Source: a bacterium (GTDB lineage Bacteria > UBA10199 > JAIBAG01). Taken from it: 64,000 nt of DNA. This document shows, piece by piece, positions 19,450 through 25,774 of this stretch (its first letter is position 1; each line of letters starts with the position of its first letter). The notes below the pieces were generated by a model. That model was not told the origin of the DNA, made no database searches, and saw only the letters and a list, made by a program, of their open reading frames with translations. Position numbers and translations under genes: made by a program. The DNA is taken from assembly GCA_019695305.1 (NCBI GenBank), contig JAIBAG010000005.1:3361-67360 (forward strand). Direction: 5' to 3'.

Positions 19450-21057
19450 ATGAAAATTGCCCTCATACAGCTCAATACCCTGGTAGGAGATATTGCTGGG
19501 AATACTCAAAAAGTCATCCGCTCGCTTGAAAAAGCCCAAAAAGAGGGCGCCAAGCTCGCGATTTTTCAGGAGATGGTGTTAACGGGCTATCCGCCACGCG
19601 ATTTGCTTTATTTGCCTTACTTTATGGCCCAGCACGAAGAAGCGCTGAAAAATATTTTGCCCTACACTCAGGGTATTGCCTGTGTTTTGGGGGGGATTGT
19701 AGTTAATAAGAACGTTGAAGGTTTGCCCTTATATAATGCCGCTTTCTGGTGTCAGGACGGAACGATTCGGGAGGTGGCGAGAAAACGCTTATTGCCTATG
19801 TATGATGTGTTCGATGAGAACCGTTATTTTGAACCGGGCCAAGAGGCGGTGGTGGTGGCGTATCAAGGCTATCATTTTGGCCTCAGTATTTGTGAAGATA
19901 TCTGGAGAGGTGGTTTGTATTCGGTTGATCCTGTAAGTGAACTTAAAACTGCCGGCGCTCAGGTGCTTATCAATATTTCGGCGTCTCCTTATAGCTGTGG
20001 CAAGATTAAGGAACGGCGAAAAATTTTGTCTCAATTATCATCCAAATATTTTCTTAAAAGCATTTATGTGAATCAGGTGGGCGGTAACGATGAACTTGTT
20101 TTTGATGGCGGATCGATGATTTACAATGCTCAAGGCGATTTGTGTCATCAATCCCCATTTTTTAAAGAAGATACACAAGTTATCGACCTTGATCATCTTC
20201 AAAAAGTAGAATTAGTAGACGATGAATTGAATTCATTGGAACAGGCCTTAATTCTAGGTTTGAAAGATTATGTAAAAAAATGTGGCTTTAAAAAAGTTGC
20301 CTTGGGTTTATCGGGCGGGATCGATTCGGCTCTTGTTGCCACCCTTGCTGCTAAAGCTTTAGGAAAAGATCATGTGTTGGGGCTTATGATGCCATCCCGC
20401 TATTCCAGCAAGGGGAGTGTGGCCGATTCTAAAAAATTAGCCAAAAATTTGGGTATAAAAACAAAACTGTTGCCTATTGATGGCCAGCATAAAGCCTACG
20501 AAAAAAGTTTTAAAACAATGTTTAGAGGTAAAAAGCCGGATACCACTGAAGAAAATATTCAGGCCCGTATACGCGGTAACTTGTTGATGGCGGTTTCTAA
20601 TAAGTTGGGGCACCTGGTTCTGACCACCGGTAACAAATCGGAAGTGGCTACTGGGTATTGCACGCTTTATGGTGACATGGCTGGTGGGTTAGCGGTTATT
20701 TCGGATGTTCCCAAAACTTTGGTTTACGATTTGTGTCGGTATATTAATCGTAAAAAGGAAATTATTCCCCAAACCATTATTGATAAAGAGCCATCAGCTG
20801 AGCTGCGTCCTAATCAGCGGGATCAGGATAGTTTGCCGCCCTATGAGGTGCTCGATAAAATCATGCGATCTTATGTGGAAGATTTAAAAAGTGAAGAAGA
20901 AATTATTGCCGAAGGCCATGATGCTGTAACAGTCAAAAGAATCATCCGCCTTATTAAACTTAACGAATACAAACGTCGCCAGGCGGCCCCTGGTTTAAAA
21001 GTAACTTCTAAAGCGTTTGGAGTAGGGCGGCGCTTTCCTATTGCGGCAAAATTTTAA
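19450..21057 (+). CDS. nadE: glutamine-dependent NAD+ synthetase
   Basis: 535 aa. An N-terminal carbon-nitrogen hydrolase domain (LTGYPPRDLL, ...CEDIW) is followed by a C-terminal NAD synthetase PP-loop (LGLSGGIDSAL). Confidence 0.9.
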   Translation: MKIALIQLNTLVGDIAGNTQKVIRSLEKAQKEGAKLAIFQEMVLTGYPPRDLLYLPYFMAQHEEALKNILPYTQGIACVLGGIVVNKNVEGLPLYNAAFWCQDGTIREVARKRLLPMYDVFDENRYFEPGQEAVVVAYQGYHFGLSICEDIWRGGLYSVDPVSELKTAGAQVLINISASPYSCGKIKERRKILSQLSSKYFLKSIYVNQVGGNDELVFDGGSMIYNAQGDLCHQSPFFKEDTQVIDLDHLQKVELVDDELNSLEQALILGLKDYVKKCGFKKVALGLSGGIDSALVATLAAKALGKDHVLGLMMPSRYSSKGSVADSKKLAKNLGIKTKLLPIDGQHKAYEKSFKTMFRGKKPDTTEENIQARIRGNLLMAVSNKLGHLVLTTGNKSEVATGYCTLYGDMAGGLAVISDVPKTLVYDLCRYINRKKEIIPQTIIDKEPSAELRPNQRDQDSLPPYEVLDKIMRSYVEDLKSEEEIIAEGHDAVTVKRIIRLIKLNEYKRRQAAPGLKVTSKAFGVGRRFPIAAKF

Positions 21058-21590
21058 ACTTTGGTGGTAGCGCTTGCGCCTTGTTGTAAATTGCGAATCG
21101 CTTCTTCCATGCGTTGACGAATAAGACGGCGTGATTCTTGAGCACTGTTTAGGTGTTCATCTGCAATTGACACTTTATAATTTTCTGCTTCCGCTTTTTT
21201 AGATGCTTCTTGAGCTTTGACGCCATAATCACCAGCTTTTTTGTTATGAGGGTTAATTGACATAAGGCCCTGACAGAGCCCTTGTACAAATTTATTGGCA
21301 ATAGTGAGTGCGGGAGCTGCAGCTGGAAAAATAATACTTAACGCTCCTAAAACACCACTTACTATATTGGCAAACATCCCAACAAAGAAATTAAAAAAGC
21401 CGCCTTTACCAATTTGATCCTGTTGTTTTTTTAGGAAAGCAATGTTTTTATCAAGCTCTACCATGCGTTTATCACATTGAATTTTTTTCATCAGTTGATT
21501 ATCTTTTTTGATGTCACCCATGGCCTGGTCGGCCTCCCCTAAGAGAGTAACTAAATCAACATTACCGCTGGTTGTAGATGGAATATTCAT
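21054..21590 (-). CDS. small hypothetical protein with central hydrophobic segment (paralogue of 21660..22181); possible T3SS substrate or translocator-like
   Basis: 178 aa. The N-terminal approximately 30 residues (MNIPSTTSGNVDLVTLLGE) resemble the N-terminus of the neighbouring 173-aa ORF (MTSINPTGNLDMESMLNNL). A GKGGFF + 35-residue hydrophobic stretch and a coiled-coil C-terminus follow. It is the last gene of the operon downstream of sctV. Confidence 0.45.
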   Translation of the reverse strand: MNIPSTTSGNVDLVTLLGEADQAMGDIKKDNQLMKKIQCDKRMVELDKNIAFLKKQQDQIGKGGFFNFFVGMFANIVSGVLGALSIIFPAAAPALTIANKFVQGLCQGLMSINPHNKKAGDYGVKAQEASKKAEAENYKVSIADEHLNSAQESRRLIRQRMEEAIRNLQQGASATTKV

Positions 21591-23730: not shown

Positions 23731-25774
23731 AGCGTGGGTCTAGTTCTTGAAACGACAACACGGTAATGTTTGGGAAATAAGCATCCAATAATTTTTTAAC
23801 GTGTCGCCTAATTTCAAGCTGGGTTAAAATGACAAACTTTTTGTTGATTTCTGGGGTTATGCGGTCGAAACCTTCCGACACTTGCTTGATAATAGATTCA
23901 ATGTTGGCAGGGTCTAATACCAAATAATTTTCGCTGCCATTTTTTTGAATGCCCGATTGTATTTCTTCTTCAACATTTTTATCTAAAAGCACGGCATGGA
24001 TTTCGCGTCCGTTGGCATGCATTTGGGTAATGGTACGCGATAGACCAATACGAACTTGCTCGGTTAACGTTACGGGATCTTTCATGTCGGGTTGGCTTAC
24101 TGCAATGGTTTCTAAAATGCGGCGCATATCTTTAACCGGAATACCTTCTTCTACCAGGCGTTTTACAACCTCGGTTAGTTTTTGCAGCGAGATATAACGA
24201 GGGAATACTTCCTTTACCAGCTCAGGATAATGCGCTTCGGTCATATCTAGCATGTGACGTACTTCTTGAATGCCTACAAATTCGGCTGCGTGTATTTTAA
24301 GTGTTTTGGCAATATGGCGCAGGAGCATTTCTTCCGGTTTTAAAGCATTAAAGCCCTGGTTTTTAAGCCATTCAATTTTATTTAAATCCCATAACCCAAA
24401 GCGTGAACCGTGTGTGGTGTTCATTTCGGAAGAGCCTTCGGTGTTACCGGCAACCAAACACGAATCGGGATACAAGGTGCCTTGATCAACTTCCTCTCCG
24501 TACACCAGAAGACTGTAGTGGTGCATCCCCATCGCTTGGGGGGAAGCGATGAGGCGCACTTCGGGGAAATGAATACCCATGTATTGTCCAAGATAGCGGC
24601 GCATTTTAGGCAGCATATGACCAAACAAATTTTTCCAGCGATCTTCCTTTGAGAATAAATTAAACAGGTAGGGGCTTACCATCACGCTAAAAGCAGATGC
24701 CGGCGCCGGGGCTATAGACTGATCATCTGTTAATTCCAGATGCGACTCAATGGGCATGGGCTCCTGTATTTTTTTATGGGCTATGTACAGGATGAGTAAC
24801 CCGGCGCCGGATAAGAGGGCTGCAATGAAGGCAAAAGGAAGAAAAGGAAATCCTGGTAAACATGACATTACTAACGATAAACCCGAGGCTCCAATGAGTG
24901 TTTTGGGTTTTTCTAAAATTTCGCGGCCAATATCGGCTCCAAGCGAACGTGTATTTTTTTCATCGGCAACACGTGTGACTACAAAGCCTGCCGTGATGGT
25001 CATGATGAGGGCTGGAATTTGTGTGACTAAACCATCACCAATGGTGAGTATGGTATACAAGCTCAAAGCCTTACTTAAGCTTAATCCATTTGATAAAACG
25101 CCTACGGCAAAGCCGCCCAGTATGTTGACAAACACAATAAGAATACCGGCAATAGCATCGCCTTTTACAAATTTCATGGCGCCGTCCATAGAGCCGTAAA
25201 GTTTAGATTCGCGGTGTAAATTATCACGCGCTGTTTTTGCTTCTTCGCTTGTAAGAAGGCCGGCTCGTAAATCGGCATCAATGCTCATCTGCTTGCCGGG
25301 TAGGGCATCTAAGGTAAATCGGGCGGCTACTTCCGAAACGCGTTCGGCGCCTTTGGCTATCACAATAAATTGAATGATGGTGAGAACTACAAAAATTACA
25401 AAACCTACAGCTAAATTGCCGCCTGTTACCATTTCGCCAAAAGTGTGAATAATATGTCCGGCTTCACCAGTAGTAAGGATGAGACGTGTGGACGATACAT
25501 TAAGTGCCATTCTAAAAAGAGTGGCAACCAAAAGAAGCGAAGGAAAAGTGGAGAGCTTCATTGGATTTCCCACCGATAAAGCTACAAATAATAATGTTAA
25601 GGTTGCCATAATGTTAATAGCCAACAAAACATCGAGCATCCATGAATGAAGAGGATAGATGAGCATCACAACCACAAACGAGAGCCCGCCAATTAAAAAA
25701 AGATGCGTAAAGCTTGAAAACCGGCTGATAATACCTTGGCGTATCAGGGTTGATTTTTCGGTCAGTGACATCAT
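23702..25774 (-). CDS. sctV: type III secretion export-gate protein, FHIPEP family (injectisome SctV/YscV/LcrD type)
   Basis: 690 aa. ...[20 protein letters not shown]...[28 protein letters not shown]... is almost identical to the YscV/LcrD block ([28 protein letters not shown]). It is less similar to flagellar FlhA ([28 protein letters not shown]). Eight TMs plus a cytoplasmic C-domain. Confidence 0.85.
   Translation of the reverse strand: [690 protein letters not shown]

Follow-up and report, generated by a model that had tools for sequence, protein, structure and literature searches.

In several known injectisomes, the genes for the distal parts stand together. In the Ysc systems of Yersinia and Pseudomonas, the order is yscV(lcrD)-lcrR-lcrG-lcrV-lcrH-yopB-yopD. 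A comparable arrangement exists in the Bsc locus of Bordetella and Achromobacter (bsp22 in one to three copies, btc22, bcrH, bopD, bopB) and in Salmonella pathogenicity island 2 (SPI-2; sseA-sseB-sscA-sseC-sseD), to which espA-espD-espB of enteropathogenic Escherichia coli (EPEC) is analogous. Here, we describe a locus of this kind in a stretch of 64 kb from the 133-kb contig JAIBAG010000005.1 of an uncultured bacterium (hereafter, the window), in which sctV, the gene for an export-gate protein, is followed by a cassette of five small genes. These six genes probably form a sigma-54 operon that encodes the export gate together with the distal tip and the translocon of a dispersed injectisome, the SctV of which belongs to a deep-branching clade.

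According to a 2025 preprint, Bsp22 is conserved at its termini and variable in its middle, and Achromobacter carries it in two or three tandem copies; the survey in the same preprint found Bsc-type clusters to be concentrated in Burkholderiales. Scattered loci for non-flagellar type III secretion systems (T3SS) are known in Chlamydiales and Hamiltonella (PMC3459982). Tip and translocon proteins are usually missed by T3SS surveys outside the well-studied proteobacteria (Abby and Rocha, PMC3459982) because they evolve so fast.

The export gate and the cassette downstream of it

Six co-directional open reading frames (ORFs) occupy positions 21054-25774 of the window on the minus strand. They are sctV (23702-25774, 690 aa) and, downstream of it, the genes for a small basic protein (23425-23730, 101 aa when read from a TTG start), for the Bsp22-like tip-filament subunits A (22889-23422, 177 aa) and B (22184-22864, 226 aa), and for the translocon-like proteins 1 (21660-22181, 173 aa) and 2 (21054-21590, 178 aa), the last being a candidate mini SctB/SseD-type subunit. 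The spacings from sctV onward are -29, 2, 24, 2, and 69 nt. A gene for a rhomboid protease lies upstream of sctV, and at the other flank the 178-aa gene, the last of the cassette, overlaps the convergent nadE by 4 nt. A preliminary description of this DNA had listed the same six ORFs, with the 29-nt overlap and the small gaps, and had placed them between the rhomboid gene and nadE; all of this was confirmed. The annotation of the small proteins at NCBI is hypothetical; however, the five small genes are real, because their order is kept in related contigs (see below).

Pfam FHIPEP (PF00771) spans residues 34-681 of the 690-aa protein with E 2.5e-205, so that the protein is a full-length member of this family; NCBI names it SctV. 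It passes the NCBIfam equivalog model of SctV (TIGR01399, 695.3 bits against a cut-off of 692.25) and fails the model of FlhA (TIGR01398, 599.1 bits against a cut-off of 772.1). Its closest relative in the PDB is YscV of Yersinia (7alw, 473 bits), the best FlhA reaching 373 bits. The earlier impression that the protein is of the injectisome type and less flagellar is therefore well founded.

In a scan of the GTDB species representatives with this SctV, a single close relative was found, at 47 % identity, on a contig (L001) whose record bears the unconfirmed label of an uncultured Nitrospirales; all the others had 37-42 % identity. A neighbour-joining tree of 83 SctV sequences puts the window, L001, and two further contigs (L081 and L083) into a long-branched clade of their own, with 46-52 % identity inside the clade and at most 41 % to the 79 other SctV proteins (from Chlamydiae and of the Myxococcota/Acidobacteria and Ysc/Bsc types). 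A literature search retrieved no prior description of this clade.

The same order of cassette genes recurs in seven related metagenomic contigs, which were found via relatives of the filament pair, via members of the 178-aa family, and via the SctV relative L001. Among 5.8 billion clusters, a profile search with the filament pair recovered 13 proteins, each of them from an uncultured source. In three of the contigs, sctV adjoins the cassette: L001 has the five genes downstream of sctV in the same order and then nadE, L081 has sctV and then the five genes, and L086 has sctV and then only four genes, with one for the filament instead of two. In L082, which begins at the cassette, the five genes are directly followed by a gene for an acyl carrier protein (ACP; PP-binding, with a DSLD motif; 2699-2914), while in L083 and L084 one further gene intervenes before the ACP gene (13234-13485 and 7960-8226, respectively), and sctV lies 6 kb away in L083. 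Finally, L085 has the five genes with no sctV in the 3 kb upstream on the contig. With the exception of L081, every sufficiently long contig has nadE near the cassette, and rpoZ is alongside in L082, L083, and L086. The module is probably a chromosomal one that has been passed on vertically, next to nadE and rpoZ, among uncultured bacteria whose SctV lineage branches deeply.

A sigma-54 (RpoN) -24/-12 promoter, TGGCACTCCCCTTGC, is located at 25789-25803 on the minus strand and ends 14 nt upstream of the ATG of sctV. In the 64 kb, it is the sole match to TGGCAC-N5-TTGCW with zero mismatches, about 0.1 such matches being expected by chance from calculation. Four relatives (L001, L081, L083, and L086) have a perfect motif 13-28 nt upstream of sctV, and in L083 and L084 one precedes the detached cassette; the cassettes of L081 and L082 have genes for a Sigma54_activat AAA+ protein and for two histidine kinases next to them. 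Since the perfect motif is unique, is conserved in the relatives, and has an activator beside the cassette there, the operon is very probably RpoN-dependent. Pfam scans of the window took in 39 of its 45 other large non-overlapping ORFs (the other six, nusA, infB, rbfA, truB, nadE, and the gene for the rhomboid protease, were assigned in other ways, outside these scans), and no sigma-54 enhancer-binding protein was found among the ORFs scanned.

In L081, the gene that lies a short way upstream of sctV encodes a 698-aa Ser/Thr/Cys-rich protein (3398-5494) and is itself preceded by a second perfect sigma-54 motif (3391-3405). This protein probably bears a lipoprotein signal (LVLSTC) and is a candidate for a co-regulated surface protein.

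Relatives of the small proteins

The 177-aa and 226-aa proteins had been described as a paralogous pair with C-termini of the needle or filament kind. Their last 54 residues are 43 % identical (E 5e-9), and profile comparisons assign both, as distant members, to the Bsp22 tip-filament family, which was among the two families that had been proposed for a check. In a phmmer search of the ORFs of 80 loci, the 226-aa protein found ORFs of 180-290 aa in Bordetella, Achromobacter, Acidovorax, Lampropedia, and Noviherbaspirillum. In L020, which is from Bordetella, they are found beside a gene for a Btc22-like chaperone (best match NF051897, 81.8 bits, below the cut-off of 100), two genes for LcrH chaperones, and those for SctB, an SctE-like protein, and SctD, which is the position of bsp22 in the Bsc locus. 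In the opposite direction, a hidden Markov model (HMM) of 13 Burkholderiales Bsp22-like proteins picked out the 226-aa ORF among the ORFs of the window, with a match from end to end (HMM positions 25-210, E 5e-9), and also found the L001 orthologues. An hhalign comparison of the window-clade profile (A1) with a profile of 11 Bsp22-like proteins (A2) gave 97.9 % (E 4.5e-13, 68 columns), and with 13 clade sequences the value against Bsp22 was 97.7 % (E 2e-12). Both the hhalign and the HMM matches recover the C-terminal helix motif of the Bsp22 family, which is of the type N-x-QQ-x-DM-x-RLQSL-x-NKRNEAF...SSIIGNMR. The 177-aa protein is a member of profile A1 and has orthologues in all the relatives; a word-indexed homologue search with this protein alone recovered only itself.

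The architecture is consistent with this assignment. In the AlphaFold2 (AF2) model of the 226-aa protein (predicted local distance difference test, pLDDT, 72.3), a helix at residues 23-71 is followed by strands and short helices at 83-163 and by a second helix at 164-225; in the published Bsp22 model, the corresponding elements are a helix at 26-74, an alpha/beta region, and a helix at 144-204 (PMC12607632; 2025 mBio). The modelled arrangement of an N-terminal helix, a variable alpha/beta middle, and a C-terminal helix therefore matches that of Bsp22. Among the orthologues of the 226-aa protein, the middle region is hypervariable and the length goes from 200 to 405 aa, so that conserved termini, a variable middle, and tandem paralogues are present in the window clade too. 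Foldseek, used with the 226-aa model against the PDB, returned nothing at E <=1e-3; IpaD and EspA were among the weak, non-significant top matches, and the fold searches otherwise led to generic coiled-coil hairpins, which are uninformative. At the level of sequence, no similarity of the pair to EspA was detectable.

Bsp22-like ORFs were also encountered in other loci: in four tandem copies in a metagenome-assembled genome (MAG) of Victivallales (L069, 504-3622), in two copies in a deltaproteobacterial MAG (L011, 15505-16779), and in one copy in an alphaproteobacterial MAG (L015, 5362-5973). The family is therefore wider than Burkholderiales. Within that order, an 864-aa ORF of Caenimonas (L047, 4555-7146) has a Bsp22-like C-terminus.

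The 173-aa and 178-aa proteins had likewise been described as a paralogous pair. The relationship is weak when the two are compared alone (25 %, E 2e-4) and becomes clearer when orthologues are added, the profiles then aligning over the full length (hhalign 82 %, E 1e-5). Compared by hhalign with alignments of SctE and SctB from T3SS loci, the 178-aa family gave 87.7 % with SctE (E 3.5e-6) and 68.7 % with SctB, the aligned region being the coiled coil and the first hydrophobic helix. The 173-aa family showed a weak relationship to the C-terminus of SctE (51 %).

A profile of the 178-aa family (A6) was then compared exhaustively, by HMMER, with 1.84 billion protein representatives. It gave 57 matches, about 47 of which are proteins of 160-190 aa, presumably members of the family itself. 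Ten atypical matches from the tail (E 4e-5 to 1e-3), mostly longer proteins, were scanned with Pfam and NCBIfam models; seven match SctB, SseD, or SseC models, four of them above curated cut-offs. Three pass the NCBIfam SctB cut-off of 37 bits (P0066 with 82, P0073 with 67, and P0078 with 85), one of these also narrowly passing Pfam YopD, and P0072 passes the Pfam SseC cut-off of 30.2 with 88.8 bits; the three others have sub-threshold SctB or SseD matches. Within the family, the L083 orthologue of the 178-aa protein matches the SseD model with E 3.8e-6 (27 bits, cut-off 130), and the member P0055 has a weak match to SseC. The 178-aa family is thus tied to bona fide translocators at the profile level and with library-wide significance, in line with the translocator-like character ascribed earlier to the 173-aa and 178-aa proteins. 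Profiles A5 and A6, run against the PDB sequences, retrieved nothing relevant.

The layout of the 178-aa protein points the same way: a coiled coil, a GGFF motif, a hydrophobic hairpin (about 65-110), and a C-terminal helix, with a Kyte-Doolittle hydropathy of at least 1.6 over residues 65-98. The AF2 model, of low confidence, has helices at 11-59, 65-87, 89-110, and 119-177. The L083 orthologue of the 173-aa protein contains a 50-residue hydrophobic stretch of transmembrane grade (68-119). Hydrophobic segments flanked by coiled coils, as expected of translocon subunits, are accordingly present. To judge from their sequences, both proteins of the pair are small-scale relatives of the subunits of T3SS translocons.

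In the NCBI annotation, the ORF at 21054-21590 starts at an internal Met and encodes 155 aa (P0018); the 178-aa start is more likely because the orthologues keep the 23 upstream residues. Elsewhere, in two further metagenomic contigs, a trio of small genes (183, 262, and 190 aa) adjoins rplU-rpmA (L088, 8633-10573; L089, 5529-7469). The last gene of the trio has a sub-threshold SctB match (32.7 bits, cut-off 37), there are no sct genes nearby, and the trio may be another detached mini-translocon module.

The first gene of the cassette belongs, in all seven relatives, to a family of about 90 aa. The alignment of orthologues favours a start of the window gene at an ATG at 23697 (about 90 aa) over the TTG at 23730. 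Members share the motifs EFxNHWVWKEL and, at the C-terminus, G-x-(L/I)-(R/K)-(V/A), and six of the seven have an isoelectric point of 9.2-9.9. LcrG, Btc22, SseA, and CesAB are small chaperones that may serve as an analogy; from its position in the cassette, the protein could be a cytoplasmic chaperone, or a regulator, of the filament subunits. A role as the needle was considered and rejected because the profiles show no similarity, the N-terminus is charged, and the C-terminal segment contains a proline.

The N-terminus also sets this family apart from the four others, whose N-termini are uncharged, rich in S, T, and N, and similar to T3S signals. The 177-aa protein, for example, begins with 20 residues that are rich in S, T, and N and carry almost no charge. 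The N-termini of the four presumed substrates may well be of the kind exported through an SctV gate.

A last point concerns acylation. IacP is the ACP of the SPI-1 translocon operon, and SipB is acylated at Cys316 in dependence on it; its published co-occurrence is restricted to SPI-1-type systems (PMC5279801). A likeness to this system lies in the ACP gene that comes after the translocon-like genes in L082, L083, and L084 and in an invariant cysteine of the 173-aa family (C68), the only invariant one, which stands at the start of the amphipathic or hydrophobic segment in the five members examined. The analogy is a positional one. As an ACP gene was searched for and is absent from the window (there is none in L001 or L081 either), the link to acylation stays a lead.

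Comparison with described systems and interpretation

The likeness to the Bsc locus consists in helical termini that are conserved around a variable middle, in tandem paralogues, and in the position of the filament genes beside those for translocators and for a small protein of about 100 aa. However, the relationship is a distant one. Only some 70 residues at the C-terminus are covered by the hhalign match, the small neighbour is not Btc22-like, an LcrH-type chaperone is missing, the translocator candidates have about 175 aa against the 330-430 aa of the Bsc translocators, the SctV belongs to a different deep clade, and the module is detached from the basal-body genes. With the Ysc operon, the cassette shares an export-gate gene that directly precedes the genes for a small (here putative) tip chaperone, a tip protein, and two translocators; homologues of LcrG, SctE, and SctB are indeed found downstream of sctV in three Ysc-type loci (L018, L019, and L043). 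The earlier opinion that nothing here resembles LcrR/G/V/H is, in functional terms, wrong, since the order of sctV, small protein, tip, and translocators parallels that of Yersinia. The Ysc tip, however, is a pentameric LcrV cap rather than a Bsp22-type filament, the Ysc translocators are large and have a tetratricopeptide repeat (TPR) chaperone, and the Ysc operon lies inside a complete T3SS cluster.

In SPI-2 and its EPEC counterpart, as in the cassette with its putative chaperone, the genes for a small basic chaperone, a filament or tip protein, and translocators come in this order, and SseD, with about 195 aa, is a similarly small SctB, to the model of which the L083 orthologue of the 178-aa protein is matched. 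On the other hand, the cassette has no major translocator of the size of SseC or EspD and no SscA/CesD chaperone, and it has two filament paralogues. In Chlamydiae, unlike in the window, the export-gate gene cdsV has no linkage to the genes for the tip and the translocators (CopB/CopD with their Scc chaperones). The chlamydial T3SS genes are nevertheless split over chromosomal loci, the cdsV-cdsU-copN cluster and others, that lie among housekeeping genes (PMC3459982), a point of likeness to the window. The window SctV is about 40 % identical to CdsV, but it forms a separate clade, sctU and a gatekeeper gene are not adjacent, and the metabolism encoded in the window looks free-living (beta-oxidation, TRAP transporter, glutamate synthase, and pyrimidine synthesis).

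We propose that the SctV gate of a non-flagellar T3SS is encoded here together with the distal parts that would contact the target. The basic protein of about 90 aa would act as a cytoplasmic chaperone and keep the filament subunits unpolymerised. After export, the two paralogous subunits of the Bsp22/EspA type would polymerise via their N- and C-terminal helices and display the variable middle domain, and the two paralogous hydrophobic proteins of about 175 aa would insert into the membrane of the target cell as a pore. The remaining genes (SctC, D, J, N, Q, R, S, T, U, and the needle) would be located elsewhere in the genome, as in Chlamydiae.

Several observations weigh against this proposal. 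No second sct core gene was found in the 64 kb, either by the Pfam scans of 39 of the 45 other large ORFs or by a phmmer comparison of every ORF of the window with those of 80 T3SS loci, and none is present in the contigs of the seven relatives; the statement of the preliminary description that the module stands apart from the other sct genes thus holds well beyond the window. With no other sct core gene on any of these contigs, a complete machine is a supposition. The protein of about 90 aa has no detectable relative (hhalign gave 0.3 % with Btc22 and 0.1 % with the needle, and LcrG, NF051897, Pfam, and NCBIfam were also negative). The 173-aa and 178-aa proteins of the window have no match at E <=1 to NF038055, NF052420, PF05844, or PF04888 and reach no curated translocon cut-off; of the five scored members of the 173-aa family, four are no more than amphipathic, and for the 178-aa protein AF2 yielded an unusable model (pLDDT 39.6). 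A class II TPR chaperone (LcrH/SycD/SicA) was found neither in the cassette nor among the scanned ORFs of the window nor in the flanks of the relatives' cassettes. There is no protein of the size of SctE in the cassette or among the scanned window ORFs, the candidates being far smaller than typical translocators. Finally, the sigma-54 motif is so near the ATG of sctV that the mRNA would be almost leaderless.

Another possibility is that the needle or pilus itself is made of the 177-aa and 226-aa proteins, in the manner of a Hrp pilus or an enlarged SctF, the T3SS context being unchanged. Residues 118-175 of the 177-aa protein do match Pfam T3SS_needle_F (PF09392), weakly (E 0.1, 13.2 bits against a cut-off of 29.4), a jackhmmer search seeded with YscF picks up Bsp22-like ORFs, canonical Bsp22 itself gives 55 % with the needle family in hhalign, and no needle gene was seen in any of the eight contigs. 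However, the profile of the window clade gives 11 % with the needle family, far below its value with Bsp22. Moreover, SctF is a helical hairpin of 70-90 aa that passes PF09392, which the 177-aa protein does not, and lengths of 177-405 aa with a variable alpha/beta middle suit Bsp22 and EspA, unlike needles. Needle genes, besides, usually sit with basal-body genes, which would be elsewhere here. We regard a needle as unlikely, even if it is the most serious of the alternatives.

A remnant appears less likely still: the rest of the injectisome would have been lost, with sctV and the cassette decaying or repurposed. This would account for the absence of any other sct gene within tens of kb in every relative, and the rarity of incomplete non-flagellar T3SS has been taken to suggest rapid deletion after loss of function (Abby and Rocha, PMC3459982). 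That same rapid deletion speaks against a relic kept for so long. Furthermore, the six genes are intact, their order, lengths, and motifs are kept across relatives whose SctV proteins are only 46-52 % identical, and the sigma-54 promoter is conserved in these relatives. It is very improbable that the small proteins are unrelated coiled-coil or membrane proteins, of a phasin-like kind, that happen to be neighbours of sctV, or that the FHIPEP protein is the flagellar FlhA. Such a view could draw on the generic coiled-coil hairpins returned by the fold searches, on the failure of every small protein to reach a curated family cut-off, and on the empty profile search against the PDB sequences. It is contradicted by the profile homology to Bsp22 and to translocon subunits, by the linkage to sctV conserved in the relatives, and, as regards FlhA, by a score below the FlhA cut-off and above that of SctV; to our knowledge, neither Bsp22 nor SctB/SseD has a flagellar counterpart. 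The possibility of unrelated coiled-coil proteins, raised in the preliminary description itself, is disfavoured on the same grounds.

The kinds of parts are all known ones: SctV, a filament of the Bsp22 type, translocators, and a sigma-54 promoter. What had been called a novel substrate cassette consists of very divergent versions of known tip and translocon components. The novelty lies in this extreme divergence, in a mini-translocon pair without a TPR chaperone, in the detachment of the module from the basal-body genes, and in the lineage. A bolder and much more tentative reading is that of an unrecognised injectisome family of versatile uncultured bacteria, with a translocon made of the two paralogues of about 175 aa only, a heteropolymeric filament tip of the Bsp22 type, and a distal module that stays with sctV, controlled by sigma-54 and separate from the basal body. 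If so, the Bsp22 filament, a family that reaches far beyond Burkholderiales, would be an ancient and widespread solution for the tip rather than a speciality of that order, and the pore would be the smallest known for a T3SS; two translocon candidates of this size with no TPR chaperone do suggest a minimal pore. The locus is also a further instance, after Chlamydiae and Hamiltonella, in which an sct gene stands apart from the rest of the core. In practice, five families so far annotated as hypothetical gain profiles through it, which could allow metagenomic surveys to recognise contact-dependent injectisomes where only an "orphan" sctV is seen at present, and injectisomes recognised in this way hint at lifestyles likely to be associated with eukaryotes or prey.

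Flanking genes

The other genes of the window are housekeeping and metabolic ones: rimP-nusA-infB-rbfA-truB, comM, rpoZ, nadE, mgtE, recO, a TRAP transporter, a gene of the methylthioadenosine phosphorylase type (PNP_UDP_1 family), beta-oxidation genes, methylmalonyl-CoA mutase, gltBD, and genes of pyrimidine synthesis. An Rfam scan of the whole window gave zero matches. The group rimP-nusA-infB-rbfA-truB (69-5477, plus strand) is about 16 kb from sctV, and in five loci of Chlamydiae (L038, L048, L058, L055, and L040) genes of the same group are no more than 10 kb from cdsV; these shared neighbours are probably a coincidence.

Pfam searches of the cassette neighbours in the relatives gave no T3SS families, the matches being to RTX, toxin-antitoxin modules, and a VanY-like peptidase; the ACP is given in the precomputed annotation of the contigs. 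A 442-aa RTX-repeat protein is encoded directly after the cassette in L001 (5758-7086), toxin-antitoxin pairs flank the cassette in L081, L083, L085, and L086, and in L085 the cassette is followed by a gene for a VanY/M15-type peptidase (6370-7239), a homologue of which (E 1.5e-14) lies near the cassette in L001 (7093-8055). This peptidase may be a peptidoglycan-remodelling enzyme.

On the plus strand of the window, about 4 kb from the cassette, an ORF of 2903 aa (8200-16911) has no Pfam family at E <=1e-3, and this giant orphan could be an adhesin or an effector. Between comM and rpoZ/nadE, also on the plus strand, a gene (18650-19144) encodes a 164-aa coiled-coil protein with Trp-rich repeats (RWDEN / QWTEN / RWDLN / RWEGN); the protein has no Pfam match, and a relative of it adjoins nadE in L001 (8085-8789). 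Further away, at 42739-44094 on the minus strand, an ORF with a GIY-YIG nuclease domain adjoins a gene for an AbiEii-type toxin and its small upstream partner gene.

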